This document shows, one piece after another, positions 1 through 64,000 of a stretch of 64,000 bases of DNA. The notes under the pieces were generated by a model that made no database searches, was not told the origin of the DNA, and saw only the letters and a program-made list of their open reading frames with translations. Source of the DNA: Campylobacterales bacterium. Lineage in GTDB: Bacteria > Campylobacterota > Campylobacteria > Campylobacterales > Sulfurospirillaceae. Numbering within the stretch: position 1 is the stretch's first letter; each line of letters begins with the position of its first letter. Position numbers and translations under genes: made by a program. The stretch is from positions 10,081-74,080 of the forward strand of contig JAFGFU010000009.1 of the NCBI GenBank assembly GCA_016930915.1, read 5' to 3'.

Positions 1-433
1 AAAGGTGTTACTCCTTTTAGGGGACGATGTTCTTTCTCACCCAAGAGCTTCTCATATTGCTAAATTAGCAGGATTGATTGCACGCTATGGTAAAGCTAAC
101 GTGATGGTAGTGGGTGCAAAAGAAGCCTATGTAAGCCTCAACGATAGTTTAGAGATGATGGATGAGGTTGCGGATATTAAGAGTTTTGATGGGGTCGTTG
201 TGTATGAATGTCCTTTAAAAGCGGGTGAAAAAGAGGGCTTACTGATTGGCTCGACGCAATTTCAAATGGCGGCTAAAGTGAAAGAGAATGAAAACATTGG
301 CGTGAAAATAGGCGAAGAAGTACATGCGTGTACCTTTGTTAAAGATGAAACGCTCAAAGGGGTTATTGGATTAATGCCCTGTGCGAAACTCAGTGGGGCG
401 TATCCCTACCATGTTGTCAAAATAGTGAAGTGA
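1..433 (+). CDS. NuoG-like protein, C-terminal fragment (5' end lies upstream of the window)
   Basis: The open frame runs off the left edge. Residues LGDDVLSHPRASHIAKLAGLI resemble IVGEDVYAHPRAQNIAKLLGLI in the C-terminal half of the downstream NuoG. The gene sits directly before nuoG-nuoN. Confidence 0.5.
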   Translation, partial: KVLLLLGDDVLSHPRASHIAKLAGLIARYGKANVMVVGAKEAYVSLNDSLEMMDEVADIKSFDGVVVYECPLKAGEKEGLLIGSTQFQMAAKVKENENIGVKIGEEVHACTFVKDETLKGVIGLMPCAKLSGAYPYHVVKIVK

Positions 434-440
434 GGCTGTC

Positions 441-2918
441 ATGAACGATATTACGATAACGATTGATGGAAAAGCGTGTCTTGCCAAAGAGGGTGAATAC
501 GTTTTAGGCGTTGCACGCAGAAATAATATTTTTATCCCTGCACTGTGTTATGTGACCAATTGTTCACCTACTTTAGCGTGTCGTTTGTGTTTGGTGGATA
601 TTGATGGTAAGCGGGCGTATAGCTGTAACGCCAGAGCCAAAGAGGGGATGAATGTCATCACGAAGAGTGAAGAGATTGAAAAAGAGCGTCGTGCCATTAT
701 GGAAATCTACGATGTGAACCATCCTTTGGAGTGTGGCGTGTGTGATCAAAGTGGCGAGTGTGAGCTTCAAAATTACACCTTACACATGGGAGTGGATTCG
801 CAACACCACTGCATCGCAGACACACACCGTCCGACCAAACAGTGGGGGCGTATTCATTACGATGCCTCTTTGTGTATTGTCTGTGAGCGCTGTGTGACGG
901 TCTGTAAAGATATGATTGGTGAGTCTGCGCTGAAAACAGTACCTCGTGGTGGGGCAGAGTTGGATAAAACGTGGAAGGATAAAACCGAAAAAGATGCCTA
1001 TGCCATGTGGAATAAACTTCAAAAGTCCATTATTGGCATTGCCAGTGGGGCGGAGAGTTTAGACTGTACGCAGTGTGGTGAGTGTACGGCAGTTTGTCCT
1101 GTGGGTGCGCTTGTAGGGAGTGATTTTCAGTATAGCTCCAATGCGTGGGAGCTTAAAAAAATCCCAGCTTCCAATCCTCACAGCAGTGACTGTTCTCTTC
1201 TTTTTTACGATGTCAAACAGACCAGCATCAGCAATCCTGAGCCAAAAATTTACCGTGTGAGCAGTGAGCACAACTACGCACCGCTTCACGCAGCAGCTCG
1301 TTATGGGTTTGACTTTCAAAATGAGGTTACATGTAAAGATGAAAGTGCCTTTGAAAGGGTGGTAGAGAGCTTAAAAACGAAGGTGGATACCCTTGCGTTT
1401 GAGAGTTACATTACCAACGAAGAAGCACTCGTTTTACAAAAGCTTAAAGAAAAATATGGTTATAAACTCATTAATCCTGAGGCAAAACGATACCAAGAAT
1501 TTCTTAAACACTACGCAAGTACTTCAGGTAAAAGCCTTTACAGTAGTGATTTGGAGAGTATTCGCTCCAGTAATTTTGTGGTGAGTTTTGGGGGTGCCAT
1601 AAAAACGGATAGTCCTAATGCAGGCTACGCCATGAACAATGCCTTAGGCATGAACAAAGGAGCAGGGCTTTACTTTCATCCTATTGCAGACCCTGTGGTT
1701 TCAGCGTATTCGAAAAACCTTCTTTCTATTACGCACAAAGTGGGGGCTGAAGAGGCGATTGCTTACTTTCTTTTAGACCTTTTTGGCGATAAAGAGGCAA
1801 TACCAAAAGCGCTTAAAGACTATTTAGCCACGTTTCATACAATTGAGAAAAAAACCATCCAAGAGAGCATTAAAGAAGATGTGAAAGAGATGGTCAAAGA
1901 TGAAGAAAGTGGTGAAGAAAAAGAGGTTATCACCAGTGTGAACAAAGTGGTCGAGAAAGAGATAGAAATTGATACCAACGCTTTGGTTTTCCTCATGGGC
2001 GCTGAAGCGGATGTAGTAGAGAAAATTACGAAACTGCTTGATAAAAAAGATAGCTTTAGCCTTATCGTGGGCGAAGATGTTTATGCCCATCCACGTGCAC
2101 AAAATATCGCAAAACTTTTAGGCTTAATAGAGCGCTTTACGCCGTTTAACCTCGTCATGATTCCTTCACGCACCAACACCTTAGGTGTTGCGCTGATTTG
2201 TGATTTGGATGAAGAAAAAGGCAACTACGTCCTAGGCTATAACACCACAGGCGATGTAACCTTGAGTGCCTTAGGCAAGGGTGATTTGGCGATGCCTGCC
2301 TTGAACCAGCAAGAAGGAACTTTTACGTCTATGAACAAACGGGTGGTTCCGACCAATGCAGCCCTTCCTTTTAAAGGCTATTGTCTCAATGACCTTGCCA
2401 ACGCATTAGGGCTTGAAGCGGAGTGGACGATTGATTACACACCTCTTTTACCACTCCAAAAAGGATTTAAAGCTCAAAAATTTGATGACCTGCCTAACCA
2501 ATACGAAAACGATGGCAGGGAAAATCGAGGCTATCTTTTAGAGGAGCAAAGCCTTACATGTAACGATGAGGTTGAACCCTTGGCAAGCTTTACATGTAAA
2601 GAGGGGGATATGGTTTATCTTGCCAATCCTGTGCATCAGTTTAGCCCTTTTACCAACAAAGCCCATCAGCTCAATGAAGCGGGTGCTTTGTATGTCTCCA
2701 AAGATTTCTTAGAGGCTAAAAATCTTAAAAGTGGTGACATGGTTACCCTTGAAAATGAAGCGGGAGCGAAGTTGGTTATTGCACTTAAAGAAGAGCCAAT
2801 GATAGGGGGCATGATTCCTTATTTGCCTGATTTTGATACCAAAATCGATGTCACACCGTTTTTTAAAGAGGGGTATCGCTTTGCGAGTGTAACGATTAAA
2901 GGAGTTGCGCATGTTTGA
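441..2918 (+). CDS. nuoG: NADH-quinone oxidoreductase subunit G
   Basis: 825 aa. N-terminal 2Fe-2S ferredoxin-like Cys pattern (CYVTNCSPTLACRLC), then HPLECGVCDQSGEC and CIVCERCVTVC / CTQCGECTAVCP Fe-S motifs. First gene of the H-N series. Confidence 0.9.
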   Translation: MNDITITIDGKACLAKEGEYVLGVARRNNIFIPALCYVTNCSPTLACRLCLVDIDGKRAYSCNARAKEGMNVITKSEEIEKERRAIMEIYDVNHPLECGVCDQSGECELQNYTLHMGVDSQHHCIADTHRPTKQWGRIHYDASLCIVCERCVTVCKDMIGESALKTVPRGGAELDKTWKDKTEKDAYAMWNKLQKSIIGIASGAESLDCTQCGECTAVCPVGALVGSDFQYSSNAWELKKIPASNPHSSDCSLLFYDVKQTSISNPEPKIYRVSSEHNYAPLHAAARYGFDFQNEVTCKDESAFERVVESLKTKVDTLAFESYITNEEALVLQKLKEKYGYKLINPEAKRYQEFLKHYASTSGKSLYSSDLESIRSSNFVVSFGGAIKTDSPNAGYAMNNALGMNKGAGLYFHPIADPVVSAYSKNLLSITHKVGAEEAIAYFLLDLFGDKEAIPKALKDYLATFHTIEKKTIQESIKEDVKEMVKDEESGEEKEVITSVNKVVEKEIEIDTNALVFLMGAEADVVEKITKLLDKKDSFSLIVGEDVYAHPRAQNIAKLLGLIERFTPFNLVMIPSRTNTLGVALICDLDEEKGNYVLGYNTTGDVTLSALGKGDLAMPALNQQEGTFTSMNKRVVPTNAALPFKGYCLNDLANALGLEAEWTIDYTPLLPLQKGFKAQKFDDLPNQYENDGRENRGYLLEEQSLTCNDEVEPLASFTCKEGDMVYLANPVHQFSPFTNKAHQLNEAGALYVSKDFLEAKNLKSGDMVTLENEAGAKLVIALKEEPMIGGMIPYLPDFDTKIDVTPFFKEGYRFASVTIKGVAHV
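1326..1337. repeat. Iterated palindrome, 11/12 copy (gTTACATGTAAA)
   Basis: Inside nuoG, read as V-T-C-K. Confidence 0.8.
2589..2600. repeat. Iterated palindrome TTTACATGTAAA, perfect copy
   Basis: 12/12; inside nuoG, read as F-T-C-K. Confidence 0.95.
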
Positions 2919-5391: not shown

Positions 5392-7248
5392 ATGGAAAAA
5401 TACCTTTATACAGCGCTTTTTGCTCCGTTGGTCAGTTCACTCTTTGTAGCGCTCTTTGCTTCACGCCCTAAGATGCTTTTTACAGGTGTTATTGCATCCA
5501 TTTTGATTGCAATTTCAATGGTTTCATCCTTTGTTTTACTGATTGACGTGAATACGCATGGCGCTTTACATGTAAACATGATGGACTGGATTGTTGCGGG
5601 TAATTTGTATATTCCTTTTGGATTTGTTGTGGATGAAGTTTCGGTCATTATGATGGTAACTGTAACCCTAGTTTCAACGGTTGTTCATATTTATTCCATT
5701 GGGTATATGGATCATGATAAGAGCTTTAATCGCTTCTTCTCATACCTCTCTGCCTTTGTTTTTTCCATGATGATTTTGGTCATGAGCGATAACTTTGTAG
5801 GGCTTTTTATTGGATGGGAAGGTGTGGGACTTTGTTCTTGGTTACTCATTGGTTTTTGGTACCATAAACACTCCGCTTCTTGGGCCGCAAATGAAGCGTT
5901 TATTATGAATCGTATTGCTGACCTTGGTATGCTGATGGGACTCTTCTTGATTTACTGGAATGTGGGTTCTTTACAGTATGAAGAGGTTTTTGCAACACTG
6001 AAGGATTTAGATAGCGTGGTTGTCGCAACGATTGGAATATTTTTATTTATTGGAGCTATGGGAAAATCAGCGCAGTTTCCACTGCATACATGGCTTGCTG
6101 ATGCGATGGAAGGACCTACGCCTGTTTCAGCGCTGATTCATGCTGCAACCATGGTAACAGCGGGTGTTTATTTGGTGATTCGTTGTGGGGAGCTTTACAG
6201 TATGATTCCAGATGTTGGTTTTGCGATTGCTTCTTTGGGTGCGTTTGTGGCTCTTTTTGCCGCTTCTATGGCATTGGTTAATAATGATTTAAAACGTATT
6301 ATTGCCTATTCAACTCTTTCTCAATTAGGGTACATGTTCGTAGCTGCTGGTTTGGGTGCTTATTGGATTGCGCTTTTTCACTTGATGACCCATGCGTTTT
6401 TTAAATCCTTACTCTTTTTGGGGGCAGGTAATGTCATGCATGCGATGCACGATGAGTTGAACATTAAAAAAATGGGTGGGCTTTATGGGTCAATGAAAGC
6501 TACTGCTATTTTAATGAGTGTGGCGTCTGTGGCATTGGCTGGTATTTATCCTTTGGCTGGTTTCTTTTCAAAAGATAAAATTTTAGAAGTGGCGTTTAAT
6601 GAGGGGGCTTACTTTTTATGGTTTGCCTTATTTATAGGAGCAGGTTTGACTGCATTTTATAGTTTTCGTTTAGTGATGCTCGTTTTCTTTGGCGAGAAAG
6701 AGTATATTAAACATGGTTTTCATCCACACGAAGCGCAACCTTTTGTGATTTATGCTTTACTTCCTTTAGGTCTTTTGGCAGTGATTGCAGGATGGTTTGA
6801 ACACCAATTTGAAGGCTTTACAACACGTCTTTTGGCACGTTATGAAATTCACATTTCTCATGGTATAGAAATCGTTTTAATTGGTGCAACACTTTGTATT
6901 GCCGTTGGTGGTATAGCTTTTGCCATTTATAAGTATCAGCGTGGTGGATTTTCAAAAACATGGGAAGAAGGATTTTTCTATAAACTTCTAAGTAATCAAT
7001 ATTACATTCCAAAAGTGTATGAGCTTTATATTATGCGACCTTTTACAATGTTATCGCAGTTTGTATGGCAAAAAATCGATATGAAAGTGGTTGATTTTAC
7101 GGTAGATAGTATCGCAAGGACGATTTATAAAACGGGTGAAAAGAGTCGAAAAATGCAAAGTGGAAATCTCTCCGACATGCTACGTTGGATGGTTGTGGGA
7201 ATGGTTGTTTTACTTGTGTTAGCACTTTTTTATAGACCAATGGCTTAG
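5392..7248 (+). CDS. nuoL: NADH-quinone oxidoreductase subunit L
   Basis: 618-aa antiporter-like subunit with GWEGVGLCSWLLIGFW, KSAQFPLHTWLADAMEGPTPVSALIHAATMV motifs. Confidence 0.95.
   Translation: MEKYLYTALFAPLVSSLFVALFASRPKMLFTGVIASILIAISMVSSFVLLIDVNTHGALHVNMMDWIVAGNLYIPFGFVVDEVSVIMMVTVTLVSTVVHIYSIGYMDHDKSFNRFFSYLSAFVFSMMILVMSDNFVGLFIGWEGVGLCSWLLIGFWYHKHSASWAANEAFIMNRIADLGMLMGLFLIYWNVGSLQYEEVFATLKDLDSVVVATIGIFLFIGAMGKSAQFPLHTWLADAMEGPTPVSALIHAATMVTAGVYLVIRCGELYSMIPDVGFAIASLGAFVALFAASMALVNNDLKRIIAYSTLSQLGYMFVAAGLGAYWIALFHLMTHAFFKSLLFLGAGNVMHAMHDELNIKKMGGLYGSMKATAILMSVASVALAGIYPLAGFFSKDKILEVAFNEGAYFLWFALFIGAGLTAFYSFRLVMLVFFGEKEYIKHGFHPHEAQPFVIYALLPLGLLAVIAGWFEHQFEGFTTRLLARYEIHISHGIEIVLIGATLCIAVGGIAFAIYKYQRGGFSKTWEEGFFYKLLSNQYYIPKVYELYIMRPFTMLSQFVWQKIDMKVVDFTVDSIARTIYKTGEKSRKMQSGNLSDMLRWMVVGMVVLLVLALFYRPMA
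5565..5576. repeat. Iterated palindrome TTTACATGTAAA, perfect copy
   Basis: 12/12; inside nuoL, read as L-H-V-N. Confidence 0.95.
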
Positions 7249-12707: not shown

Positions 12708-12740
12708 TCTTTACATGTAAAACTATTTCACATGTAAAGA
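12708..12740. terminator. Hairpin between convergent genes, built from 1.5 copies of the iterated palindrome
   Basis: TCTTTACATGT (12708-12718) is the exact reverse complement of ACATGTAAAGA (12730-12740), with an 11-nt loop. The hairpin spans the TPR-gene stop region and the miaA stop. Confidence 0.45.
12710..12721. repeat. Iterated palindrome TTTACATGTAAA, perfect copy
   Basis: 12/12; in the 15-bp spacer between the convergent TPR-like gene and miaA. A further half-copy ACATGTAAA lies at 12730-12738. Confidence 0.95.
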
Positions 12741-13622
12741 GGCTTCAATTAAAGGCTTGAGAGCATCAACATTACCTTTAGGATGTGCCTCAAATTGTGA
12801 GGCATTAAACGTGCGTTGGCGTTTGGCTAAATGCAAGGTATTTAAGCTAATGCGTTCTTCCAGCTGCGTGAGTGTGTATTTTCCATCAAAGTAATCCAAT
12901 ACCTCTTTAATCCCGATGGCTTTCATGCATTGAGGTGTTCGTGTGTAGCGTTTTTCCAGAGAAAAAACTTCATCAATCAATCCCATTTTAAGCATCATCT
13001 GTGTGCGTAAAGTAATTTTTTGAGCCAATACCTCTTTAGGCGTTTCAATTTCAAAAAGTTCAAGCTCTTGAATGAGAGGAGGTTGTTTGGTTTTCGCAAG
13101 GTAATCTGAGGGAATCTCGTGTGCGGATAAAAAAATTTCCAGCCATTTTTCAATGCGATAGCTATCGTTTCGTGCAATTTTTGTGGCATAAGCAGGATCG
13201 TGCGTTTCAATCAGCGCATACGAAGCCTCTAAATGATGTAATTTAGTCTCAATATCTTCTTTTACATGTAAAGGTATTTCAGGTTTTAAACTAAAGCCTT
13301 CCATCATCGCTTTAAGGTAAAATCCTGTTCCACCTACAATGATTAAATCTTTTTTATCTCTTGTGCATGCCTCTTTGGCTTCACGGTAACATTCAAAAAA
13401 CATGGTGACATCAAAATGCTCATTGGGGAAAAGTACATCCATACCAAAATGGACAATGCCTTGACGCTCCGCTCCGCTTGGTTTTGCAGAAGCAATATCA
13501 ATTTCTTTATAAATACTCAGTGAATCCAGTGATAAAATATATGCACTATGAATGCGTGCAAGTTCAATTGCAAGAGCTGTTTTTCCTGAAGCGGTTGGAC
13601 CTAAAATGGCGATAGTTTTCAA
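12723..13622 (-). CDS. miaA: tRNA dimethylallyltransferase
   Basis: P-loop GPTASGKTALAIELA, LDSLSIYKEIDIASAKP and IIVGGTGFYLKA motifs typical of MiaA. Confidence 0.9.
   Translation of the reverse strand: MKTIAILGPTASGKTALAIELARIHSAYILSLDSLSIYKEIDIASAKPSGAERQGIVHFGMDVLFPNEHFDVTMFFECYREAKEACTRDKKDLIIVGGTGFYLKAMMEGFSLKPEIPLHVKEDIETKLHHLEASYALIETHDPAYATKIARNDSYRIEKWLEIFLSAHEIPSDYLAKTKQPPLIQELELFEIETPKEVLAQKITLRTQMMLKMGLIDEVFSLEKRYTRTPQCMKAIGIKEVLDYFDGKYTLTQLEERISLNTLHLAKRQRTFNASQFEAHPKGNVDALKPLIEASLHVK
13261..13272. repeat. Iterated palindrome TTTACATGTAAA, perfect copy
   Basis: 12/12; inside miaA (minus strand), read as L-H-V-K. Confidence 0.95.
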
Positions 13623-13700: not shown

Positions 13701-13712
13701 CTTACATGTAAA
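13701..13712. repeat. Iterated palindrome, 11/12 copy (cTTACATGTAAA)
   Basis: In the spacer. Its 3' flank AAAGG doubles as the likely RBS for the TTG start at 13721. Confidence 0.8.
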
Positions 13713-15627: not shown

Positions 15628-15650
15628 CGGGTTTACATGTAAACCCGTTA
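15625..15650. terminator. Bidirectional terminator-like 26-bp perfect palindrome
   Basis: TAACGGGTTTACATGTAAACCCGTTA is followed by TTTTTATT on the plus strand and preceded by AAAA. It lies between the convergent genes ending at 15627 and 15661. Confidence 0.65.
15632..15643. repeat. Iterated palindrome TTTACATGTAAA, perfect copy
   Basis: 12/12; at the centre of the 26-bp perfect palindrome 15625-15650, between convergent genes. Confidence 0.95.
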
Positions 15651-18731: not shown

Positions 18732-19867
18732 GTAAAAAAGAAGAAGGGAATCTCTTCTCCTTCTTCAATAGATGTTCTTTTCTCAATTAAAGCATAACCA
18801 TTACACTGACTTAAAATATTGAGTCTTCCTGCCTCATAATGGGGCGCACTAACAAAATGATTTCCATCGCTGTATCCAGGAATTGCACTTATACAAGAAT
18901 CTTTACATGTAATTCTCTTTTGATTTACACAGCTGATAAAAGCGGGCAAAAGAGAAGAATGTGATTGCAGATGTCTAAGCAGAGGGACTCCTAGCATTTC
19001 AAAACCTAGGGTACAACTTAGCGGTAATCCTGGTAGATGCAAAATAGGTTTTTTATTAAATAGACTCAAAGCACTCGGTCTAGCAGGCGAAATAGAGACA
19101 TTATGAAAAAGAGGTGAGAGCGTCTTTTTTTCCAATAAGTGACACATACTATCGTTTTTGCTGAGCGCACCCGTGGTAATAATGGCATCTGACGTGTGCA
19201 TTAATGTATCCATAGCTTTTAAAATAGCATCTTCATTTTCATCGCAGAGATGAATGTCTCCAATTTTGCCTCCCAATTCTAGGATACGTGCGGCTAAACT
19301 CATGGCATTAGAATTGCAAATTTCTTTTTTAACCAATTGGGCACCAATACTCAAAAGGCTAATGGTTGGTTTTTTAAAAACGTGAATGTTTTGAATGCAT
19401 TGTGAAGCAAGGGCAGTTATTTTTTGGGCACTTAGATGCTCTCCTTTTTTAAGTAGTACTTCTCCTTGCGTAATGTCTTCTCCCTCTTTTTTCATATGTG
19501 CAAATAGCGTTACATGTAAAGATATCTGAATCTCATTTGCTCGTTCAACGAGTACGTCTTCTTCGGGAATAATGGCATTAATGCCTTCTGGAATGGGAGA
19601 GCCTGTGGAAAGTTTGACACCATAACCCAAAGGAATGAAAGAAGGATAAGGCGGTTGAAGTAGGGTGTAATGCGTCGTGTGGGATTTAAAAGCAATCCCA
19701 TAGCCTTCTTTTAAACTCATGGGGTATTTTGGGAGTGAAAAGTTTGCGTGAATATCTTGACTGGAAACACGATGCAAGGCGCTTAAAAGAGGTAAAGTCT
19801 GTTTTACATGTAAAGGTTTGATAGATGTTTGAATAATTTGAAGTGCTTCTTGATACGAAATAGGCAT
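18713..19867 (-). CDS. moeA: Molybdopterin molybdenumtransferase
   Basis: 384-aa MoeA-like protein (N-terminal YQEALQII, central MoCF-biosynthesis domain with [10 protein letters not shown]-like motif). Convergent with moaA, with a 19-bp overlap. Confidence 0.82.
18902..18913. repeat. Iterated palindrome, 11/12 copy (TTTACATGTAAt)
   Basis: Inside moeA (minus strand), read as I-T-C-K. Confidence 0.8.
19509..19520. repeat. Iterated palindrome, 11/12 copy (gTTACATGTAAA)
   Basis: Inside moeA (minus strand), read as L-H-V-T. Confidence 0.8.
19803..19814. repeat. Iterated palindrome TTTACATGTAAA, perfect copy
   Basis: 12/12; inside moeA (minus strand), read as L-H-V-K. Confidence 0.95.
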
Positions 19868-22169: not shown

Positions 22170-22181
22170 GTTACATGTAAA
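22170..22181. repeat. Iterated palindrome, 11/12 copy (gTTACATGTAAA)
   Basis: In the spacer 13 nt after the rsmI stop, flanked by CTCTTTT / AAAAGAG inverted arms (22163-22169 and 22188-22194). Confidence 0.8.
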
Positions 22182-35932: not shown

Positions 35933-35944
35933 TTTACATGTAAA
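35933..35944. repeat. Iterated palindrome TTTACATGTAAA, perfect copy
   Basis: 12/12; in the spacer, 22 nt upstream of the bcp start codon. Confidence 0.95.
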
Positions 35945-44856: not shown

Positions 44857-47800
44857 ATGCCAAAACGTCAAGATATTAAAACCATATTATTAATTGGATC
44901 AGGTCCAATTGTCATCGGACAGGCATGTGAATTTGACTATTCGGGAACGCAAGCAGCAAAAACACTTAAAGAGTTAGGCTATCGTGTTGTTTTGGTGAAT
45001 TCAAATCCTGCAACGATTATGACTGACCCTGAGTTTGCAGATAGAACGTATATCGAACCGATTACTCCTGAAGTGATTGCACGCATTATTGAAAAAGAGA
45101 GTGTTGATGCTGTACTTCCAACCATGGGTGGGCAAACAGCGCTGAATGTTGCCATGACCATGCATGAAAAAGGGATGCTCAACAATGTCACATTTTTAGG
45201 CGCAAATCCTGCGGCGATTAAAAAAGGTGAAGATAGACAAGCTTTTAAAGAGGCGATGTTAAAAATCGGGATGGATTTACCGATTAGTGCGTATGCTTAC
45301 AATATGGAAGATGCGTATGCAGCGGCTGAAAAAATTGGATTCCCGCTTATTATCCGTGCTTCTTATACCCTAGCAGGTGGCGGTAGTGGTGTTGCGTATA
45401 ACATTGATGAGTTTAAAGAGTTGGCGATGGCGGGATTGGATGCGAGCCCTATTAATGAGATTTTGATTGAAGAGTCACTCTTAGGATGGAAAGAGTATGA
45501 GATGGAAGTCATTCGAGATCGTGCAGATAACTGCATTATCGTCTGTTCCATTGAAAACCTAGACCCAATGGGTGTACATACGGGCGATTCGATTACCATT
45601 GCACCAGCGCTTACGTTAACGGATAAAGAGTACCAACGTATGCGAAATGCTTCGTTTGCTATTTTGCGTGAAATTGGCGTGGATACAGGTGGAAGTAACG
45701 TCCAATTTTCAATTTGTCCTAACACAGGTCGTATGACGGTGATTGAGATGAATCCTCGTGTAAGCCGAAGTTCTGCGCTTGCGTCAAAAGCAACAGGTTA
45801 TCCTATTGCCAAAGTGGCAACACTCTTGGCGGTTGGTTTTACGCTTGATGAGATTAAAAATGACATCACAGGTACAGCGGCAAGTTTTGAGCCTGTCATT
45901 GACTACATTGTGACAAAAGTTCCTCGTTTTACCTTTGAAAAATTTCCACTGGCGGATTCGACTTTGACCACTTCTATGAAGAGTGTGGGTGAAGTTATGG
46001 CGATTGGTCGTACGTTTAAAGAGTCATTTCAAAAAGCCCTCTGCTCACTTGAGACCAATTTAAGTGGTTTTGAGAGCATAAAAGTGGATGAAGAGAAACT
46101 CAAAAATGAGATTCGCCGACCTAATGCGGATAGAATGCTCTATGTGGGTGAGGCATTCCGTCGTGGATACAGCGTGGAAGATATTTTTGCATTAAGTAAA
46201 ATTGACCCATGGTTTTTAAATCAGTTTAAAGAGATTATTGATTTTGAAAAAAAGATTGATATGTTTATTTTAAATGATGAAAAGCTTTTACGTCAGGCAA
46301 AAACGATGGGCTTTTCGGATAAGATGATTGCAAAACTCATTAATCAAGAAGATAATTTAGAACTAACCTCAAATGACATTTATTTTGCACGAACCAAACT
46401 TGGGATTGATTTTGAGTACAATGAAGTCGATACGTGTGCAGCAGAGTTTAAAGCCTTAACACCGTACCTTTACTCCACAACCAATGTGACAAAACTTCCT
46501 TTACATGTAAAAGAAAAAGATGCGCAGAAAAAGGTGATGATTATTGGCGGTGGACCAAATCGTATTGGACAAGGTATCGAGTTTGATTACTGTTGTGTTC
46601 ATGCGGCGTATGCTCTTAATGACATGGGTGTGAAAACGATTATGTACAACTGTAATCCTGAGACGGTTTCAACCGATTATGACACCAGTGATATTCTTTA
46701 CTTTGAGCCGATTGATTTTGAACACGTAAGAAGTGTGGTTGAAAAAGAGAACCCCGATGGGATTATCGTTCATTTTGGTGGACAAACACCCCTTAAATTG
46801 GCGAAGAAATTAACCGTTATGGGTGCGAAAATCATTGGTACAACTGCCCGTGTGATTGATATGGCAGAAGATAGAGAGAAATTTTCAAAATTTATTACCG
46901 AAAATAACATTAAGCAACCTAACAATGCGACTGCAACCAGCGAAGAAGAGGCAATTGAAAAAGCTAAAGCGATTGGTTACCCTGTTTTAGTGCGTCCAAG
47001 TTATGTTCTAGGTGGACGTGCGATGCGTATCGTCTACAACGAGAGTGAGCTTAGAACCTATATGAACGAAGCGGTGAGTGTCAGCCACAATTCACCTGTT
47101 CTGATTGACCAGTTCTTAGACCGTGCGATTGAGGTGGATGTGGATGCTATTTGTGATGGCAAAGATGTTTACATTGGTGGCATTATGCAACATATCGAAG
47201 AAGCGGGTATTCACAGTGGCGATAGCGCATGTTCTTTGCCAAGCGTGAGTTTAAGTGATGCAATTCTTTCAAAAATTGAAGCGCAAACACAACAAATTGC
47301 TTTGAATTTAGGCGTTGTCGGTTTGATGAATATCCAATACGCTATCTATCAAGACGATGTCTATATGATTGAAGTCAATCCACGTGCAAGCCGTACGGTA
47401 CCATTTGTAAGTAAAGCAACGGGCATGCCAATGGCAAAAGTTGCAACCCGTGTCATGTTCCAAGGAAACCTTCGTGAAGCGCTTAAATTTTACGATAAAT
47501 TTGATGTAGTACGCGAAGAAAATGGGATTTTAAAACCTAAGAAGTTTGATCATGTTGCGGTTAAAGAAGCCGTATTTCCATTTAACAAGCTTCAAGGTGC
47601 TGATCTTATCTTAGGACCTGAAATGAAATCCACCGGTGAAGTTATGGGCATTAGTAAAAACTTCCCAGCCTCGTTTGCAAAAAGCCAAATTGCTTCCTCC
47701 AACGTGCTGCCAAAAAGTGGCGCGGTATTTATCTCATTAGTTGATATTGACAAAAGTTTTGCGAAACAAATTGGTGAGAAATTTGTTCAATTGGGATTTA

Positions 47801-48119: not shown

Positions 48120-48560
48120 ATGAATTCCCAGCTGGTATATCTCGTACAAACAGAGACAACAGCGGGTTTTCTCTCTCAAAATGCGGACGCACTCATTCAA
48201 ACGAAAAACCGCCCAAGCGGTAAATCGTTTTTGATGAGTGTGGATTCGCTCTTTACCCTTCGTTCATTCATAAGAGTTCCAACGCTTCATAAAAATCTTG
48301 TACGACGCTCCAAAAAAACAACGTTTGCTTATCCGTGTGGCTTAGCGATTCGTGTGGTGAAAGATGAGGTGCATTTGGAATTTTTACGCAAACTAAAATG
48401 GAGTTATTCGACCTCTTCCAACCCTAGTGGAAAAGGTTTTAATGAAGCATTTGCCAAAGAAAAAGCTGACGTGATTGTTTTTACATGTAAAGGTTTTTAT
48501 GAAGATAAACCCTCAATGATTTACAGACTAGGCAGAGTGAAAAAGAATCGATTGCGATGA
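48120..48560 (+). CDS. Short Sua5/YciO/YrdC-family protein
   Basis: 146 aa. The N-terminal VYLVQTETTAGFLSQ resembles the YrdC-fold signature (PTDTVYGL-like position); the match is weak. Confidence 0.5.
   Translation: MNSQLVYLVQTETTAGFLSQNADALIQTKNRPSGKSFLMSVDSLFTLRSFIRVPTLHKNLVRRSKKTTFAYPCGLAIRVVKDEVHLEFLRKLKWSYSTSSNPSGKGFNEAFAKEKADVIVFTCKGFYEDKPSMIYRLGRVKKNRLR
48480..48491. repeat. Iterated palindrome TTTACATGTAAA, perfect copy
   Basis: 12/12; inside the YrdC-like gene, read as F-T-C-K. Confidence 0.95.
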
Positions 48561-50194: not shown

Positions 50195-51073
50195 TTATAC
50201 TCCTAATGTATTTTTTATGGTTTCAAAACTTTCTTCAAGTAACTTTTTTAAAGGCTCATCGCTGTATTCGGTGATGGTTTTTGCTTCAACCATCGCTTGT
50301 GTAAAGGCTTTATTGTAAGGAATACTCTTTACATGTAAAATGGATTCTTCCCTCAAAAAGGCTTCAATCTGCGCACATACTTCAGGATTTAAATCTGCTT
50401 TGTTAATAATGCATCCCGCTTTAATACGAAATTTTTTCACGACTTCATAGACGCGTTTTAAATCGTGCAGACCTGAAAGGGTTGGCTCAGTTACGAGCAA
50501 GGCAAAATTGGCGCCACTGAGGGAAGAGACCACTGGACAGCCAATGCCAGGTGAACCATCCACAATCATCAAGGATTTATTTTTCGCCAAGGCAATGGCT
50601 TTGCCCTCTTTTTTGACTTTGGCGACCAATTTACCTGAATTTTCAGCGCCAATACCTAGTTTTGCGTGCACCATATCGCTTCCGTATTTGGTTTGAGATG
50701 TAAACCACGCTCCCGCCAAACGCTCATTCATCGAAATTGCTTTTGGACGGCACACTTTTTCACAGTATCCACACCCCTCGCACGAGAGTTCATCCACAAC
50801 ATAGCGACCATTTTGTAGGACAATCGCATCAAAACGGCACACCTGTGCACATCGTCCGCAATTACGGCAGGTATCTGGGTCAATGTGGGCTAAAACACCG
50901 CTGTAAAAATCCTCTTTGTGATCAAAATCGGGTTGAAGTAAAAGGTGCATATCTGCTGCGTCCACATCGCAATCCACAACCACACATGCATTTTTAGCTA
51001 AACTTGCTAGCGCTGCGGTAATCGACGTTTTTCCTGTACCGCCTTTGCCTGAAATGACGACAATCTCTTTCAT
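50195..51073 (-). CDS. MinD/ParA-type P-loop ATPase with inserted 2x[4Fe-4S] ferredoxin domain
   Basis: Deviant Walker A SGKGGTGKTS, inserted CRNCGRCAQVC and CEGCGYCEKVC motifs, and DGSPGIGCPV switch region. Confidence 0.85.
   Translation of the reverse strand: MKEIVVISGKGGTGKTSITAALASLAKNACVVVDCDVDAADMHLLLQPDFDHKEDFYSGVLAHIDPDTCRNCGRCAQVCRFDAIVLQNGRYVVDELSCEGCGYCEKVCRPKAISMNERLAGAWFTSQTKYGSDMVHAKLGIGAENSGKLVAKVKKEGKAIALAKNKSLMIVDGSPGIGCPVVSSLSGANFALLVTEPTLSGLHDLKRVYEVVKKFRIKAGCIINKADLNPEVCAQIEAFLREESILHVKSIPYNKAFTQAMVEAKTITEYSDEPLKKLLEESFETIKNTLGV
50328..50339. repeat. Iterated palindrome TTTACATGTAAA, perfect copy
   Basis: 12/12; inside the MinD-type Fe-S ATPase gene 50195-51073 (minus strand), read as L-H-V-K. 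Confidence 0.95.
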
Positions 51074-51936
51074 TGCGCGGCTCCTTCAAAACGTGTTTTT
51101 ACATGTAAAGCTATTTTTTCGATTTCATCTTTGAAAGATGGAATCTCTTTATAGATAAGTTTTCCCGCAGAATAGAGCTTTGCTGCTTCAATCAAATGAG
51201 GAATTTTCCCAATAACAGGGATGTTTTCTCTTTGGCAATACTCTACAACATCCTCATTTCCCATGCCATAACGGTTAATGACCACCCCAAACTCTTTTCC
51301 TAAAATGCGTGTCGTTTCTACCGCAAGGGTTAAATCGTGCAAACCAAAAGGAGTGGGTTCCGTGACTAAAATGACAAAATCAGCATCTTTAATCGCCTCA
51401 ATAACAGGGCAAGAAGTCCCTGGAGGTGAATCAAAAAGCTTAATGGTTTCATCATCAAAATGTTGATCAACATATTTTTTAGTCTGCGCAATTAATGAGA
51501 CGGCTTGTTCCTCTCCGATATTTAAACGTCCTTCTACAAACTCTATATCACCTGCAAGAAAATGGCTGAGTTCGCCCATTTTTTGAGGTTCCATCGGCAG
51601 TGAACCCATAGAGCAAAGTTCCGAACAGGCGTAGCAACTGTGGCAGAGATTGGGGAAGACTAAAATCTCATTAGCAATGCAAAGAAGGGCGTTGAAATTA
51701 CAATTTTGAACACAATCCGCACACAGCGTACATGACGTGCTATCCCAACGAGGAATCATCTTCATTTTATCCTCTTTGCGTAAGAGTTCACCTTGTAAAA
51801 AGAGATTGGAATTGGGTTCTTCTACATCTAAATCAACCAAAACGGTGCTTTGACTCTCCCCTAAAAATGTTGCAAGATTAGTGGAAAGGGTTGTTTTCCC
51901 TGTTCCACCTTTACCACTGGCTATGGCTATTTTCAT
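51070..51936 (-). CDS. MinD/ParA-type P-loop ATPase with inserted Cys-rich ferredoxin-like domain (paralog)
   Basis: SGKGGTGKTT Walker A, CTLCADCVQNC and CHSCYACSELC motifs, DSPPGTSCPV. The ATG at 51936 makes an ATGA overlap with the upstream small gene, and its stop makes an ATGA overlap with the 50195-51073 start. Confidence 0.85.
   Translation of the reverse strand: MKIAIASGKGGTGKTTLSTNLATFLGESQSTVLVDLDVEEPNSNLFLQGELLRKEDKMKMIPRWDSTSCTLCADCVQNCNFNALLCIANEILVFPNLCHSCYACSELCSMGSLPMEPQKMGELSHFLAGDIEFVEGRLNIGEEQAVSLIAQTKKYVDQHFDDETIKLFDSPPGTSCPVIEAIKDADFVILVTEPTPFGLHDLTLAVETTRILGKEFGVVINRYGMGNEDVVEYCQRENIPVIGKIPHLIEAAKLYSAGKLIYKEIPSFKDEIEKIALHVKTRFEGAAQ
51098..51109. repeat. Iterated palindrome TTTACATGTAAA, perfect copy
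   Basis: 12/12; inside the MinD-type ATPase gene 51070-51936 (minus strand), read as L-H-V-K. Confidence 0.95.
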
Positions 51937-52873: not shown

Positions 52874-52885
52874 TTTACATGTAAA
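52874..52885. repeat. Iterated palindrome TTTACATGTAAA, perfect copy
   Basis: 12/12; in the divergent spacer, 3 bp upstream of a TATAAT (52889-52894) facing the MBL-fold gene. Confidence 0.95.
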
Positions 52886-53779: not shown

Positions 53780-53792
53780 AGATGGTTTTTAC

Positions 53793-53804
53793 TTTACATG
53801 TAAT
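53793..53804. repeat. Iterated palindrome, 11/12 copy (TTTACATGTAAt)
   Basis: In the spacer 14 nt after the MBL-fold gene stop. Confidence 0.8.
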
Positions 53805-54398: not shown

Positions 54399-54458
54399 AT
54401 ATTTATTTTTTTTAATGTCACTTTAGTGTAAAATTAAGTATTACAAAAAGGATAAAAG

Positions 54459-54932: not shown

Positions 54933-54965
54933 GCGTTAGAGGTGTTAAAAGGAGAGTGTAAATTC

Positions 54966-55910: not shown

Positions 55911-55916
55911 TATAAT
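55911..55916 (+). promoter_or_regulatory. Candidate -10 box upstream of the KilA-N gene
   Basis: TATAAT lies 44 nt upstream of the ATG, and an AAGGAAAA RBS follows. Confidence 0.35.
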
Positions 55917-55960
55917 TACGGCAAATTCGCCATAATTAACTCCAAATAAGGAAAATTAAA

Positions 55961-58188: not shown

Positions 58189-58256
58189 GGAACCTACTTT
58201 TTGAGGTATTATAACGTAACAGACTTACATTTTTAAGAGAGTTTTGTATAGACTTC

Positions 58257-59315: not shown

Positions 59316-59343
59316 TTGCCAGAAGGATATAAGGAGTAAAAGA

Positions 59344-59847: not shown

Positions 59848-60848
59848 GAGTAGCCATTATTGGAGCGAGTGGGTATACAGGTTTAGAGCTGATTAAAATG
59901 CTTATTTCCCATCCGCATTTTGAAATTACGTATATTGCAACCACTGAGGGTGGGGTGAAAGCCAGTGCATTGCATCCTAGTTTGGTAGGTGTGTTTGAAC
60001 AAGAGGTCCTAAAAGCCGATGCTAAAGAGGTGGCAAAACATGCGGATTTAGCTTTTTTAGCCCTTCCGCATCAAGCCGCTATGGGCTTTGCTAAAGAGCT
60101 TTTGGATTTACATGTAAAGGTGGTTGACCTCTCAGCAGATTATCGTTTGGAGCTTGAAGCGTATGAGAAACACTACTGCGAACATTTGGATAAAGAGCAC
60201 CTAAGCGAGGCAGTGTATGGATTGCCTGAAATTCACACTGCAAAAATTAAACAGGCTCGTTTAATTGCTAATCCTGGATGTTATCCAACCGCTTCGTTGT
60301 TGGCAGTTTTACCGTTTCTTCCTTACTTAAAAAAAGAAGCACCTATTTTTTTGGATGCGAAAAGTGGGGTTTCAGGTGCAGGTAAAAAACTTTCTCAAAC
60401 ATCACACTTTGTCACCATTAATGAAAATATTTTTGCTTACAATCCTTTAAAACACCGCCATGAACCAGAGATTGCGGAGAAAATTGCGCAGGTAAGTGGG
60501 CATGCATATGAAGTCAATTTTATTCCGCATCTTTTACCCGTGAGTCGAGGAATGTTGGTGAGCGCTTATTTGCAAACCACAGAGGTGCTTGATGCAAAAG
60601 CCCTGCTTGAGTCTTTTTATCAAGAGGCTCGTTTTGTGCGAGTCAGGGAAAATCCTGTGGATATTAAGTCAGTAGCAGGAACCAATTTTTGCGATATTTT
60701 TGTCACACAAAAAGGCACATCGCTTTTTGTCTCTTCCGCCATTGATAACCTTCTTAGAGGTGCTTCCTCTCAAGCAGTGGTCAATGCCAACTTAATGTGT
60801 GGGTTTGAAGAGAGTGCTGGAATTCCCATTATTGCGTATGTCCCCTAA
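59844..60848 (+). CDS. argC: N-acetyl-gamma-glutamyl-phosphate reductase
   Basis: IIGASGYTGLEL, NPGCYPT active-site Cys, DNLLRGASSQAV. Confidence 0.95.
   Translation: MRVAIIGASGYTGLELIKMLISHPHFEITYIATTEGGVKASALHPSLVGVFEQEVLKADAKEVAKHADLAFLALPHQAAMGFAKELLDLHVKVVDLSADYRLELEAYEKHYCEHLDKEHLSEAVYGLPEIHTAKIKQARLIANPGCYPTASLLAVLPFLPYLKKEAPIFLDAKSGVSGAGKKLSQTSHFVTINENIFAYNPLKHRHEPEIAEKIAQVSGHAYEVNFIPHLLPVSRGMLVSAYLQTTEVLDAKALLESFYQEARFVRVRENPVDIKSVAGTNFCDIFVTQKGTSLFVSSAIDNLLRGASSQAVVNANLMCGFEESAGIPIIAYVP
60107..60118. repeat. Iterated palindrome TTTACATGTAAA, perfect copy
   Basis: 12/12; inside argC, read as L-H-V-K. Confidence 0.95.
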
Positions 60849-61575
60849 TCTTTTAATTCACGAAGGAGCGCACTTTATCGCCGATGCGCATGATAGTTCT
60901 GAGCGCTCCTTCTTCTTTGAATACCTTTTACATGTAAAGAAAAATCCTCCACCCCAACTCTTTTTAATGGGTGATATGTTTGATTTGCTTGTGGGCGATG
61001 TGGTGTATGGGGTAAAAAAATATGAGCGCTATATTGCACTCATTGAAGAGATCGCGCAGGTGTGTGAGGTCTATTATTTTGAGGGAAATCACGACTTTCG
61101 TTTGGCTCAACTCTTTTTACATGTAAAGGTTATTCCCATTGAAGAACAACCTCTTACATGTAAGCTTCCCAGTGGAAAAACCTGCCTTTTATTGCACGGC
61201 GATAAATACGGTGATAGATTCAATCGTCTCTACACAAAACTCATACGAAACCCTTTCATTTTGAGCTTTTTAAATGGCTGTGATGTTTTAAGCGGTGGCG
61301 CTATTTCAAAGGCGATTGAAAAATCCCAATCTAAAAAAAATTTATGCAAACGCATTCCTCATTTTACAACGCTCATACAACGCAAGCTCTTTTTATACCC
61401 TAAAGCAGAGGTAATCGCAGAAGGGCATTACCATCAGAATCACGCATTTATGGTATCTGGCGTTCATTACATAAATTTTTCATCTTTTGCGTGCAATCAA
61501 AGCTACTTTAGTGTACAATCTTCCTCAGAGACAGAATTTGCACCAATGCAATTTAGGTCATGTCCAAGCACATAA
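60838..61575 (+). CDS. Calcineurin-like metallophosphoesterase (UDP-2,3-diacylglucosamine hydrolase LpxH-like)
   Basis: FIADAH, LMGDMFDL, FEGNHDF, LLHGD motifs. The ATG at 60838 overlaps the argC stop by 11 nt. Confidence 0.65.
   Translation: MSPNLLIHEGAHFIADAHDSSERSFFFEYLLHVKKNPPPQLFLMGDMFDLLVGDVVYGVKKYERYIALIEEIAQVCEVYYFEGNHDFRLAQLFLHVKVIPIEEQPLTCKLPSGKTCLLLHGDKYGDRFNRLYTKLIRNPFILSFLNGCDVLSGGAISKAIEKSQSKKNLCKRIPHFTTLIQRKLFLYPKAEVIAEGHYHQNHAFMVSGVHYINFSSFACNQSYFSVQSSSETEFAPMQFRSCPST
60927..60938. repeat. Iterated palindrome TTTACATGTAAA, perfect copy
   Basis: 12/12; inside the LpxH-like gene, read as L-H-V-K. Confidence 0.95.
61116..61127. repeat. Iterated palindrome TTTACATGTAAA, perfect copy
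   Basis: 12/12; inside the LpxH-like gene, read as L-H-V-K. A 10/12 copy follows at 61153-61164. Confidence 0.95.
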
Positions 61576-62535: not shown

Positions 62536-62545
62536 GGGTAGAACG

Positions 62546-64000
62546 ATGGAAGATATTCAAGAAATTTTAGAAGATTTTTTGGTTGAAGCGTTCGAACTTA
62601 TTGAACAACTTGATCAAAATTTGGTAGAGCTAGAGTCCAATCCTGATGATTTGGAACTGCTCAATAGCATTTTTAGGGTGGCACATACGATTAAAGGGTC
62701 ATCATCGTTTTTAAATTTTGATGTCCTAACAGGTCTTACACACCATATGGAAGATGTTTTAAATAAAGCACGTCATGGTGAACTTAAATTATCACATGAA
62801 GTGATGGATGTCGTTTTAGAGTCGATTGACTTAATGAAAAGTTTGCTGCATGCCATTCGAGACAATGGTAATGATACTTCTGTTGGTATTGATATTACTG
62901 ATATTTGTCGTCGTTTAGACATTATTTCTAATGGGGAAGAGGTGAGTGCACCAGTGACACCTGCTCAGATGGATCCTGTGGAAACACCGATGGATGAAGA
63001 TAATGTGGATTATTCAAAACTCAGTGATAAAGAGGTGGAAGAGGAGATTGAGAGACTTCTTAAAATGCGTAAAGAAGAAGACCGTCAACGTAAATCTCAA
63101 GCTGCAGTATCAACGCCTGCTAGCACAAATGTAGCATCTTCTGTACAGGAAGATAAATATGAAGAAGAAGAGCCAAAAGTTGCGGCAGCAAGTGTAAAAA
63201 GAGCTGCACCTGAGTCTTCTACCCCAGCTAAAAAAGATGCATCCAGCTCAATGGAGCAAACCATTCGTGTTGAAGTTAAACGACTTGACCACTTAATGAA
63301 TTTAATTGGCGAGTTGGTTTTAGGTAAAAATAGATTGCTTAAAATTTATGACGATGTTGAAGAGCGTTATGAGGGTGAAAAGTTCCTTGAAGAGCTTAAT
63401 CAAGTGGTTTCATCTATCTCTTTGGTCACAACAGATTTACAAATTGCGGTGATGAAGACCAGAATGCTTCCTATTGCCAAAGTGTTTAATAAATTTCCAC
63501 GAATGGTTCGCGATCTTTCTCGTGAATTGGGTAAACAAATTGAGCTTGAAATTTCAGGTGAAGAGACCGAGCTTGATAAGTCTATTGTGGAAGAGATTGG
63601 CGATCCTTTGGTTCACATTATTCGTAACTCATGCGACCATGGTATTGAAGATATTGCGACTAGACGTGCTAAGGGTAAACCAGAAACAGGTTTGATTCAG
63701 CTTAAAGCGTACAACGAGGGAAATAACATTGTCATTGAAATTACCGATGATGGTAAAGGTTTAGATCCTGATTTACTCCGTTCAAAAGCAATTGAAAAAG
63801 GAATGATTACCGAGCGAGAAGCCGATGGTATGAGTGACAAAGAGGCATATGCACTGATTTTTAAACCGTCTCTTTCAACGGCAAAAGTGGTTACCAATGT
63901 TTCAGGACGCGGTGTGGGAATGGATGTTGTAAAAACCAATATTGAAAAACTCAATGGTATTATTGATGTGGATAGTGAGTTAGGACAAGGAACGGTGATT
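62546..64000 (+). CDS. cheA: Chemotaxis histidine kinase CheA (3' end beyond the window)
   Basis: Not in the ORF track because no stop falls inside the window. MEDIQEILEDFLVEAFE...FRVAHTIKGSS HPt motif, later RMLPI...HIIRNSCDHGIE and GRGVGMDVV kinase boxes. The frame stays open to position 64000. Confidence 0.9.
   Translation, partial: MEDIQEILEDFLVEAFELIEQLDQNLVELESNPDDLELLNSIFRVAHTIKGSSSFLNFDVLTGLTHHMEDVLNKARHGELKLSHEVMDVVLESIDLMKSLLHAIRDNGNDTSVGIDITDICRRLDIISNGEEVSAPVTPAQMDPVETPMDEDNVDYSKLSDKEVEEEIERLLKMRKEEDRQRKSQAAVSTPASTNVASSVQEDKYEEEEPKVAAASVKRAAPESSTPAKKDASSSMEQTIRVEVKRLDHLMNLIGELVLGKNRLLKIYDDVEERYEGEKFLEELNQVVSSISLVTTDLQIAVMKTRMLPIAKVFNKFPRMVRDLSRELGKQIELEISGEETELDKSIVEEIGDPLVHIIRNSCDHGIEDIATRRAKGKPETGLIQLKAYNEGNNIVIEITDDGKGLDPDLLRSKAIEKGMITEREADGMSDKEAYALIFKPSLSTAKVVTNVSGRGVGMDVVKTNIEKLNGIIDVDSELGQGTVI

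Follow-up and report, generated by a model that had tools for sequence, protein, structure and literature searches.

A 12-bp palindrome, TTTACATGTAAA, occurs in 17 perfect copies in the 64-kb stretch of Sulfurospirillum DNA analysed here (contig JAFGFU010000009.1, positions 10,081 to 74,080, called the window below), and our results showed that this enrichment is real and is no by-product of codon or amino-acid usage. The word is found throughout the genus and appears to be kept in place at the DNA level by a lineage-specific trans-acting factor, for which we tentatively propose a role in the recognition of self DNA during natural transformation. The window together with its flanks covers about 73.5 kb of this genome, and about 22 kb was available for each relative.

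In dinucleotide-preserving shuffles of the window, the mean number of copies of TTTACATGTAAA was 0.05 and the maximum was 1, compared with the 17 observed. Markov models fitted to the window itself, with orders from 0 to 4, predicted 0.04-0.19 occurrences when both strands are counted, while 34 were observed. We also shuffled synonymous codons within each gene, which preserves every protein and the codon usage of each gene; this gave 1.0 in-gene copies (maximum 4) instead of the 13 observed, a number that none of 1000 shuffles reached. The test errs on the safe side, since it leaves in place the LHVK and FTCK peptides that the motif has created. Markov and codon-shuffle nulls were the checks on enrichment put forward in an earlier note, made from the letters of the window, and both were far exceeded; they rule out a bias in codons, amino acids or oligonucleotides as the source of the excess. 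Depending on the null model, the over-representation was about 180- to 850-fold. The commonest 8-, 10- and 12-mers of the window are all words derived from the motif, and copies with at most one mismatch numbered 28 when 0.68 were expected.

The counts of the earlier note stood up well to recounting. Every one of its 17 coordinates for perfect TTTACATGTAAA copies is exact. Its ten one-mismatch copies are all real, although the total is 11, a copy at 12727 (TTCACATGTAAA) having been overlooked, and the copies with two mismatches, which it had put at eight or more, number 18, its eight all among them. The 10-mer TTACATGTAA does occur 28 times. Three quarters of the ACATGT hexamers had been said to sit inside the longer motif, and 33 of the 44 in the window (75%) indeed lie within TACATGTA, and 28 of the 44 (64%) within the 10-mer TTACATGTAA. 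The G+C content, estimated at about 40%, was measured at 37.6%.

Examination of the flanks of the window, which belong to the same organism, revealed five further perfect copies in 9.5 kb. The 8.5 kb by which a contig of this organism runs beyond the 3' end of the window hold four perfect copies and one with one mismatch, and the 956 bp upstream hold one of each. The overall density is thus 22 perfect copies in 73.5 kb, or about one per 3.3 kb (about one per 3.8 kb in the window alone). If this density is extrapolated, a genome of 2.3-2.7 Mb would hold several hundred perfect copies.

Symmetrisation of the 28 copies with at most one mismatch showed that the full unit is YTTTACATGTAAAR, of 12-14 bp. 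Counted outward from the centre, the information is 1.6-2.4 bits at each of positions 1 to 5 (TGTAA); it drops to 0.9 bits at position 6 and to 0.55 bits at position 7 (a purine, mostly G), and there is none beyond. The flank bias described previously, C at -1 in 9 of 17 copies and G at +1 in 10 of 17, was recovered. In all 11 one-mismatch copies the ACATGT core is intact and the deviations are confined to the outer three positions on either side, and ACATGT without a TAA flank is found in 7 of 44 cases when about 20 would be expected. The signal thus ends 7 bp from the centre, which is incompatible with a longer repeat or mobile element; miniature inverted-repeat transposable elements (MITEs) and clustered regularly interspaced short palindromic repeats (CRISPR), both already thought unlikely in the earlier note, were ruled out on this ground together with repetitive extragenic palindromic (REP) elements.

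The spacing is irregular, as had been reported: the gaps between copies fit a uniform scatter (Kolmogorov-Smirnov P = 0.46; coefficient of variation 0.87). We found the same split of 13 perfect copies in genes and four in spacers. Spacers make up only 5.7% of the window, and yet these four perfect copies (P = 0.014) and, when one mismatch is allowed, 7 of the 28 sites (P = 8e-4) lie in them, a density about five times that in genes. A transcription-factor regulon had been considered unlikely and was ruled out, with 13 of the 17 copies inside unrelated housekeeping genes and only 2 of the 17 in spacers between divergent genes, the promoter-type spacers. The perfect copies are located as follows.

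2589..2600, in nuoG, read F-T-C-K; the orthologues of the motif-loss subclade have FAAK or FLAK.
5565..5576, in nuoL, read L-H-V-N; relatives have PLHVT with at least one mismatch to the motif.
12710..12721, in the 15-bp spacer between the convergent PflA-like DUF7494 gene and miaA.
13261..13272, in miaA, minus strand, L-H-V-K; S. cavolei has SDSAQ and S. arcachonense SEETK.
15632..15643, at the apex of a hairpin with a 15-bp stem (15621-15654), between convergent genes.
19803..19814, in moeA, minus strand, L-H-V-K.
24633..24644, in the last codons of gene 23836-24651, LHVKE followed by the stop.
35933..35944, in a spacer between divergent genes.
37753..37764, in an AsmA-family gene, minus strand, L-H-V-K.
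46500..46511, in carB, L-H-V-K.
48480..48491, in gene 48120-48560, F-T-C-K.
50328..50339, in a gene for a MinD/ParA-like Fe-S ATPase, minus strand, L-H-V-K.
51098..51109, in a second MinD/ParA-like ATPase gene, minus strand, L-H-V-K.
52874..52885, in the spacer between a divergent DUF134 gene and a metallo-beta-lactamase-fold gene.
60107..60118, in the aspartate-semialdehyde dehydrogenase gene, L-H-V-K.
60927..60938, in gene 60799-61575, L-H-V-K.
61116..61127, in gene 60799-61575, L-H-V-K.

The copies with one mismatch are the following.

1326..1337, GTTACATGTAAA, in nuoG, V-T-C-K; motif-less lineages have VAGK or AEGK.
12727..12738, TTCACATGTAAA, in the 3'-terminal part of miaA and 17 bp away from the 12710 copy; perfect in the close relative L005.
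13701..13712, CTTACATGTAAA, in a spacer.
18902..18913, TTTACATGTAAT, in moeA; S. arcachonense has a perfect copy at the same site.
19509..19520, GTTACATGTAAA, in moeA.
20960..20971, CTTACATGTAAA, in a gene, L-T-C-K.
22170..22181, GTTACATGTAAA, in a spacer.
30196..30207, TTTACATGTAAT, in purF.
40179..40190, TCTACATGTAAA, in queH.
42671..42682, TTTACATGTAAC, in clpX.
53793..53804, TTTACATGTAAT, in a spacer.

The hairpin at 15621-15654 consists of a perfect 15-bp stem followed by a T-run (dG -17.8 kcal/mol, z = -4.9) and looks like a bidirectional terminator; the motif at this site is perfect in L005 and L008, while the sequence has diverged in L006. This is the only copy that sits in a strong hairpin, the others being without extended symmetry, and a general role of the motif as an RNA hairpin was rejected on this basis. 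Rfam and tRNA scans of the window gave no matches, which places the motif in no structured RNA family.

We then considered the imprint of the motif on the encoded proteins. Because the motif is a palindrome, its three reading frames are identical on the two strands, and one of them contains TAA. Eleven of the 13 perfect copies in genes are read as nnT TTA CAT GTA AAn (L-H-V-K/N) and the other two as TTT ACA TGT AAA (F-T-C-K). As a result LHVK is the commonest tetrapeptide of the proteins of the window, with 11 occurrences when 0.23 are expected from composition (about 48-fold), and the LHV tripeptide is inflated about 6-fold. LHV is spelled TTACATGTA in 15 of 18 cases, whereas codon usage predicts about 4%.

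Comparison of orthologous residues in motif-less relatives and in this genome showed that FAAK or FLAK corresponds to FTCK, VAGK or AEGK to VTCK, SDSAQ or SEETK to LHVK and PLRKT to PLHVK. In nuoL, the conserved PLHVT has become ALHVN here, and it is the replacements of Pro by Ala and of Thr by Asn that complete the 12-mer. Since the motif-less orthologues have different residues at these sites, the motif is imposed on proteins at tolerant positions, where it overrides both the choice of codon and the identity of the amino acid. A similar but weaker imprint, with tripeptides inflated about 2-fold, was described for uptake sequences by Findlay and Redfield (PMC2817400).

Exact matches to proteins of the window were found in a metagenome-assembled genome (GCA_016938325.1) and in Logan assemblies of three sequencing runs; an exact search with CarB gave no match. 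The nearest named relatives of the window genes are Sulfurospirillum species; the organism is a Sulfurospirillum, in agreement with the Campylobacterota lineage that the earlier note had given. To follow the motif among relatives we compared the syntenic 22-kb nuo/PflA-like region of 15 of them, and a tree of six concatenated proteins (3083 gap-free columns) supported the clades used here. Clades A and B were sisters in 160 of 200 bootstraps, and B1 and B2 grouped together in 200 of 200. The numbers of copies in each clade are given below; MAG stands for metagenome-assembled genome.

Clade A (the window, L005, a 94% relative, L221, an 83% relative, and S. deleyianum DSM 6946): 3-6 perfect copies and 9-13 copies of the 10-mer.
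Clade B1 (S. sp. SCADC, S. oryzae, an S. diekertiae-like genome and WB_39_10): 2-4 perfect copies and 4-11 of the 10-mer.
Clade B2 (the three MAGs CTSoil_042, CTOTU26098 and SRP167436_co1_15): 0-2 perfect copies and 0-2 of the 10-mer.
Clade C, S. cavolei and the near-identical MAG Epsilon_01: 0 perfect copies and 1 of the 10-mer.
Clade C, UBA4058: 0 perfect copies and 7 of the 10-mer.
Clade O, deep-branching (S. arcachonense and a relative): 4 and 2 perfect copies, and 5 and 3 of the 10-mer.

The motif thus spans the genus and is as old as Sulfurospirillum. Deep-branching S. arcachonense has 48% identity in the PflA-like protein and a G+C content of 31%. A parallel gain of motif sites in A and B1, suggested by a single-gene neighbour-joining tree, was discarded: the six concatenated proteins point to A and B as sisters, so one ancestral origin suffices. 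In subclade B2, ACATGT itself is at chance level.

The ACATGT core is constant between clades while its flanks vary. In S. cavolei, ACATGT is enriched three-fold (21 compared with 6.4 expected). The 22-kb loci of the S. cavolei group (L010, L012) contain 8-9 copies of the asymmetric word TTACATGTCA and the palindromic 10-mer once; ACATGT is flanked there by TAA and TCA in 9 cases, by TAA on both sides in 1 and by TCA on both sides in 0. The orientation of TTACATGTCA in S. cavolei, 6 versus 3 in 22 kb, showed no clear strand skew. UBA4058 (L011) is 91% identical to S. cavolei in nucleotide sequence and has 7 palindromic 10-mers; at the ACATGT sites shared by the two, about 10 differences are toward the palindrome in UBA4058 and 1 is away from it.

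As controls we used loci from metagenome matches to CarB, whose proteins are 55-84% identical and none of which comes from a close relative. Neither the 12-mer nor the 10-mer was found (0 copies) in 835 kb around carB of unrelated bacteria. In 229 kb from 22 Campylobacterota-like control contigs (71-84% CarB identity), two perfect copies were present, one each in L140 (14.3 kb, CarB 74%), which holds three one-mismatch copies in addition, and in L150 (16 kb, CarB 71%). L140 and L150, the only two of these 22 contigs in which the motif occurs, may be further carriers of the signal.

Conservation at orthologous sites, another check put forward in the earlier note, was found across about 24% nucleotide divergence. 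Compared with S. sp. SCADC (76.5% nucleotide identity), 8 of the 9 alignable sites had at most one difference, while the baseline, taken from any aligned 12-mer, was 0.23 (P = 5e-5). Compared with a 92.8% relative, 10 of 13 sites were identical (baseline 0.46, P = 0.025). The B2 genomes are as distant as SCADC, yet they showed no excess of site conservation. At the B2 orthologous sites, one genome has retained PLHVK, spelled CCA TTG CAT GTC AAA, the motif being lost through synonymous changes, another reads ALDVK and another SSPIK; these look like eroding motifs. The absence of excess conservation and the eroded sites indicate that the maintaining force has ceased in B2, where the motif is drifting away. 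The loss in B2 and the variant of S. cavolei in turn indicate that what maintains the motif acts in trans and is inherited, and that it may disappear or alter its specificity. These comparisons and the codon-shuffle null show that the maintenance acts on the DNA and depends on the lineage; a drive exerted by a trans-acting factor is the reading they favour.

The earlier note had placed the motif in the class of the DNA uptake sequences (DUS) of Neisseria, the uptake signal sequences (USS) of Pasteurellaceae and the highly iterated palindrome HIP1 of cyanobacteria. This class assignment holds, the motif being a dispersed, hyper-abundant short palindrome whose enrichment and density fall within that range; as possible functions the note had listed uptake, a methylation or nucleoid landmark, and recombination or repair. 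The motif seems to behave like HIP1, DUS and USS and yet to belong to none of them, since its sequence and its lineage differ. HIP1 (GCGATCGC) is also a perfect palindrome, 15-300-fold over-represented (compared with about 180-850-fold here), present in genes and spacers, conserved at orthologous sites and lineage-wide with losses or alternatives, and it too has one-base variants at its outer positions and a core that resembles a methyltransferase target (PMC5861425, PMC4390886). The Sulfurospirillum motif differs from it in being found in Campylobacterota, in having another, AT-rich sequence of 12-14 bp rather than 8 bp, and in being sparser (about one per 3.5 kb compared with up to more than one per gene); moreover, no cognate methyltransferase is known here (none lies in the window or its flanks). 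Quasi-periodic spacing along the chromosome, with periods of 10-90 kb, is a further trait of HIP-type palindromes; within the 64 kb of the window, which is short for such periods, the local spacing is indistinguishable from random.

The DUS of Neisseriaceae, whose receptor is the minor pilin ComP, are likewise hyper-abundant 10-12-mers that are enriched in spacers and present in terminator hairpins. They are non-palindromic and have a demonstrated uptake bias, whereas our motif is known from sequence alone. They occur family-wide in lineage dialects that share a conserved core (PMC3630211), as ACATGT is constant here, but about 35% of DUS copies are in open reading frames (PMC2817400) compared with 76% of the copies in the window. 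The USS of Pasteurellaceae (Hin and Apl types) are closer in this respect, 65% being in genes in Haemophilus influenzae (PMC2817400), and they also inflate encoded peptides, fall on poorly conserved residues and form clade-specific subtypes (PMC1626085). They differ in having an asymmetric 9-bp core with AT-rich flanking segments, in being about three times denser and in having an uptake specificity proven experimentally, while the inflation of peptides is stronger here (about 6-fold for LHV and about 48-fold for LHVK compared with about 2-fold for USS tripeptides). Direct reading of TTTACATGTAAA beside GCCGTCTGAA and AAGTGCGGT, a DUS dialect and a USS type, showed nothing in common, so the motif would at most be a new, independent signal.

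In the same phylum, Campylobacter jejuni discriminates DNA by a short palindrome, RAATTY, which it recognises by its adenine methylation (PMC10046745), and by analogy this signal may serve as a precedent for a palindromic, possibly methylated uptake signal. Unlike our motif, however, RAATTY is a 6-mer common by composition that is not hyper-accumulated, and no trace of drive in the genome has been reported for this word. Palindromes of 12-16 bp in genes and spacers, bound by protein dimers, are also known as the NBS of Noc, the SBS of SlmA, the matS of MatP and the parS of ParB. The arrays of these four proteins comprise tens of copies and are regionally restricted, whereas several hundred copies are extrapolated here, the window shows no regional pattern and no such protein is known in the lineage; the density here (one per 2-4 kb) exceeds that of the Noc, SlmA and MatP arrays by one to two orders.

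By analogy with these systems, we tentatively favour the interpretation that cells use the motif to recognise self DNA in uptake or natural transformation, possibly by reading methylation of its CATG core. DNA fragments bearing the motif would be preferentially bound, taken up or recombined, and mutations that improve a near-match would then be over-transmitted between the cells of a population. Molecular drive of this kind, as proposed for DUS and USS, would pile up copies in spacers and wherever L-H-V-K or F-T-C-K is tolerated. A perfectly palindromic word built on a CATG/ACATGT core might be read by a symmetric dimer or via methylation of that core. The size of the enrichment, the imprint on proteins, the excess in spacers, the terminator hairpin, and the dialects and loss all count in favour of an uptake signal; dialects and losses are known for DUS and USS as well (PMC3630211, PMC1626085). 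Uptake by C. jejuni is limited to DNA that is methylated at the palindrome RAATTY (PMC10046745), and methylated HIP1 boosts cyanobacterial transformation (bioRxiv 10.1101/2024.09.10.611283; 10.64898/2026.06.24.733823). About 5 kb past the 3' end of the window (L217 11943-13142) we found a gene for a type IVa pilus retraction ATPase of the PilT/PilU family (TIGR01420, 412 bits, cut-off 319), which itself carries a perfect copy of the motif. This circumstantial evidence suggests a pilus or competence-pseudopilus machinery in this Sulfurospirillum.

Several observations weigh against an uptake signal. This pilT-type gene is the only pilus gene seen, and pili serve other functions; the approximately 73 kb of window and flanks contain no pilin, secretin, ComEA or ComEC gene. 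Neither of the established uptake signals, DUS and USS, is palindromic, and a dimeric DNA-binding protein or a methyltransferase would be no less natural a reader of a perfect palindrome than a pilus-borne receptor. The open-access literature and bioRxiv hold no uptake, transformation or methylation data for Sulfurospirillum, and the window consists almost only of core genes, so it offers no contrast with recently acquired DNA. Finally, methylation-coupled biased repair would equally predict the conservation, the imprint, the dialects and the loss, and so, largely, would a selected array of binding sites.

In methylation-coupled biased repair, the model of Elhai for HIP1 (PMC4390886), an orphan methyltransferase would mark the CATG/ACATGT core, and mismatch or very-short-patch repair would pull near-matches toward the palindrome, with no transfer between cells. 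This model, which we consider unlikely here, accounts for the perfect palindrome with a core typical of methyltransferase targets, for the deficit of ACATGT without a TAA flank, as if existing cores were converted to full motifs, and for the confinement of mismatches to the outer positions, a bias also seen in HIP1 (PMC4390886); the loss or alteration of a single enzyme would give both the B2 loss and the S. cavolei variant. The 64 kb and the flanks, however, contain no gene for a methyltransferase or a Vsr-like protein, an enzyme reading 12-14 bp would be unprecedented, and the repair model is itself untested for HIP1. The known effects of very-short-patch repair shift word frequencies far less than several-hundred-fold. 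On the strength of site conservation, Xu et al. attributed the maintenance of HIP1 to selection and not to repair (PMC5861425), an argument that also serves the next explanation, in which the copies form an array bound by an abundant dimeric protein of the chromosome, each site being kept by selection; the protein would be nucleoid-associated or chromosome-organising, comparable to Noc, SlmA or MatP but with far denser sites. We assign this array a similarly low probability. A perfect palindrome of 12-14 bp is the classic footprint of a dimeric protein, and the sites of Noc, SlmA and MatP are similar palindromes; the sites are conserved at orthologous positions, as in the case made for selection and a nucleoid role of HIP1 (PMC5861425), and the protein could have been lost in B2 or have shifted its specificity in S. 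cavolei. Against this, each site would have to repay amino-acid replacements in housekeeping enzymes, the spacing in 64 kb is indistinguishable from random, without a sign of regularity or regional restriction, and no candidate protein was identified. Moreover, Noc, SlmA and MatP have tens of sites, whereas many hundreds are extrapolated here.

An intracellular recombination or repair signal that is independent of uptake, either Chi-like for an enzyme of the RecBCD/AddAB type or a preferred crossover point, is in our view improbable. The density of Chi in Escherichia coli is comparable to one per 2-4 kb, and such a signal would spread also by biased gene conversion, but Chi is over-represented only a few-fold and not several-hundred-fold. 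Known Chi sites are asymmetric and strand-skewed, while the motif is its own reverse complement, and its only asymmetric variant, TTACATGTCA of S. cavolei, lacks a clear strand skew (6 versus 3). Kamoku and Nielsen have nevertheless proposed a Chi-like component for HIP1 (bioRxiv 10.1101/2024.09.10.611283). Artefacts, whether remnants of mobile elements or MITEs or a bias in codons, amino acids or oligonucleotides, are excluded and retain a negligible probability: nothing beyond the general AT-richness of the genome speaks for them, while the copies lie in frame inside conserved housekeeping genes, the nulls are exceeded 13-fold to several-hundred-fold, and the B2 relatives lack the motif with the same G+C content and the same genes. 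Returning to transformation, the more specific claim that YTTTACATGTAAAR is the first sequence-specific self-recognition signal for transformation in Campylobacterota, palindromic, probably read through methylation, as old as the genus, and with dialects and a secondary loss, is drawn by analogy and is somewhat more doubtful than an uptake role as such.

The earlier note knew of no described signal of this sequence, and we found none in open-access papers and bioRxiv, although an earlier mention elsewhere is possible. The same sources report no iterated or uptake sequence in Sulfurospirillum, and a survey of abundant bacterial oligonucleotides mentions neither palindromes nor this group. What is new is therefore a hyper-abundant, genus-wide palindrome in Sulfurospirillum, of a kind already known from DUS, USS and HIP1. 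Hyper-abundant words that rewrite coding sequences are known from these very few lineages, each of which serves as a model for the shaping of genomes in trans, and the motif extends the phenomenon to a new phylum with a word that is AT-rich, palindromic and longer than HIP1. Cultured, genome-sequenced carriers of the motif or of its variant are available in S. deleyianum DSM 6946 (complete, CP001816), S. arcachonense and S. cavolei, and S. diekertiae and S. oryzae are further candidates for study. The natural contrast between the motif-rich clades, the B2 loss and the S. cavolei variant should allow a comparison of gene content to reveal the factor. If this factor belongs to a competence machinery, environmental Campylobacterota would discriminate self DNA by sequence, and the emerging view of HIP1 as an uptake signal would be supported. 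A true transformation signal would be the third independent invention of an uptake sequence, after those of Neisseriaceae and Pasteurellaceae, and would join DUS/USS, HIP1 and the RAATTY of C. jejuni under one mechanism. Addition of the motif to constructs, possibly in methylated form, could also improve the genetics of Sulfurospirillum, which is of use to research on organohalide respiration.

We also scanned the viral contigs of IMG/VR with CTTTACATGTAAAG. Among the matches listed, most were single chance matches, and the scan was uninformative on phages of Sulfurospirillum. Clusters of the 12-mer were found among the matches listed at L037 356-548, L034 888-1513, L027 6969-6992 and L030 4101-4445, where they are embedded in arrays of CTTTACA/TGTAAAG half-sites and TTGACA boxes. 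The clusters resemble operator or promoter regions of unrelated phages, with no apparent connection to the genome-wide phenomenon. L037 holds a HIP1 site (GCGATCGC) as well.

The next most over-represented 8-mer in all the Sulfurospirillum loci was AAAAAGAG/CTCTTTTT, with 42 occurrences in the window compared with 4.2 under a zero-order model. Markov models of order 3 and 4 predicted 25-29 occurrences and there was no strand or sense bias, which makes this word mostly compositional, and it was rejected as a second signal.

A few other features of the region were observed. The 7.2-kb stretch from 52886 to 60106 is without a perfect copy, a gap that is not significant on its own. It includes, along with small unannotated genes at 53865-55712, a gene for a protein with a KilA-N domain, a phage-type DNA-binding domain (55961-56776, plus strand), preceded by two small open reading frames without a Pfam match and by a Sel1-repeat gene of low G+C content (27.5%); a small accessory island may lie here. 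Immediately downstream of the nuo operon, and syntenic across the genus, positions 10314-12707 (plus strand) encode a 797-aa tetratricopeptide repeat (TPR)/DUF7494 protein, a homologue of which is named 'PflA domain protein' in one source, after a flagellar motor component. The PflA-like gene of L005 (10001-12392) has 2392 nt, which is not a multiple of 3 and reflects a frameshift or an assembly error in the MAG. At 32041-33123 (minus strand), two adjacent DUF2393 genes encode proteins of 178 aa each, an apparent tandem duplication.

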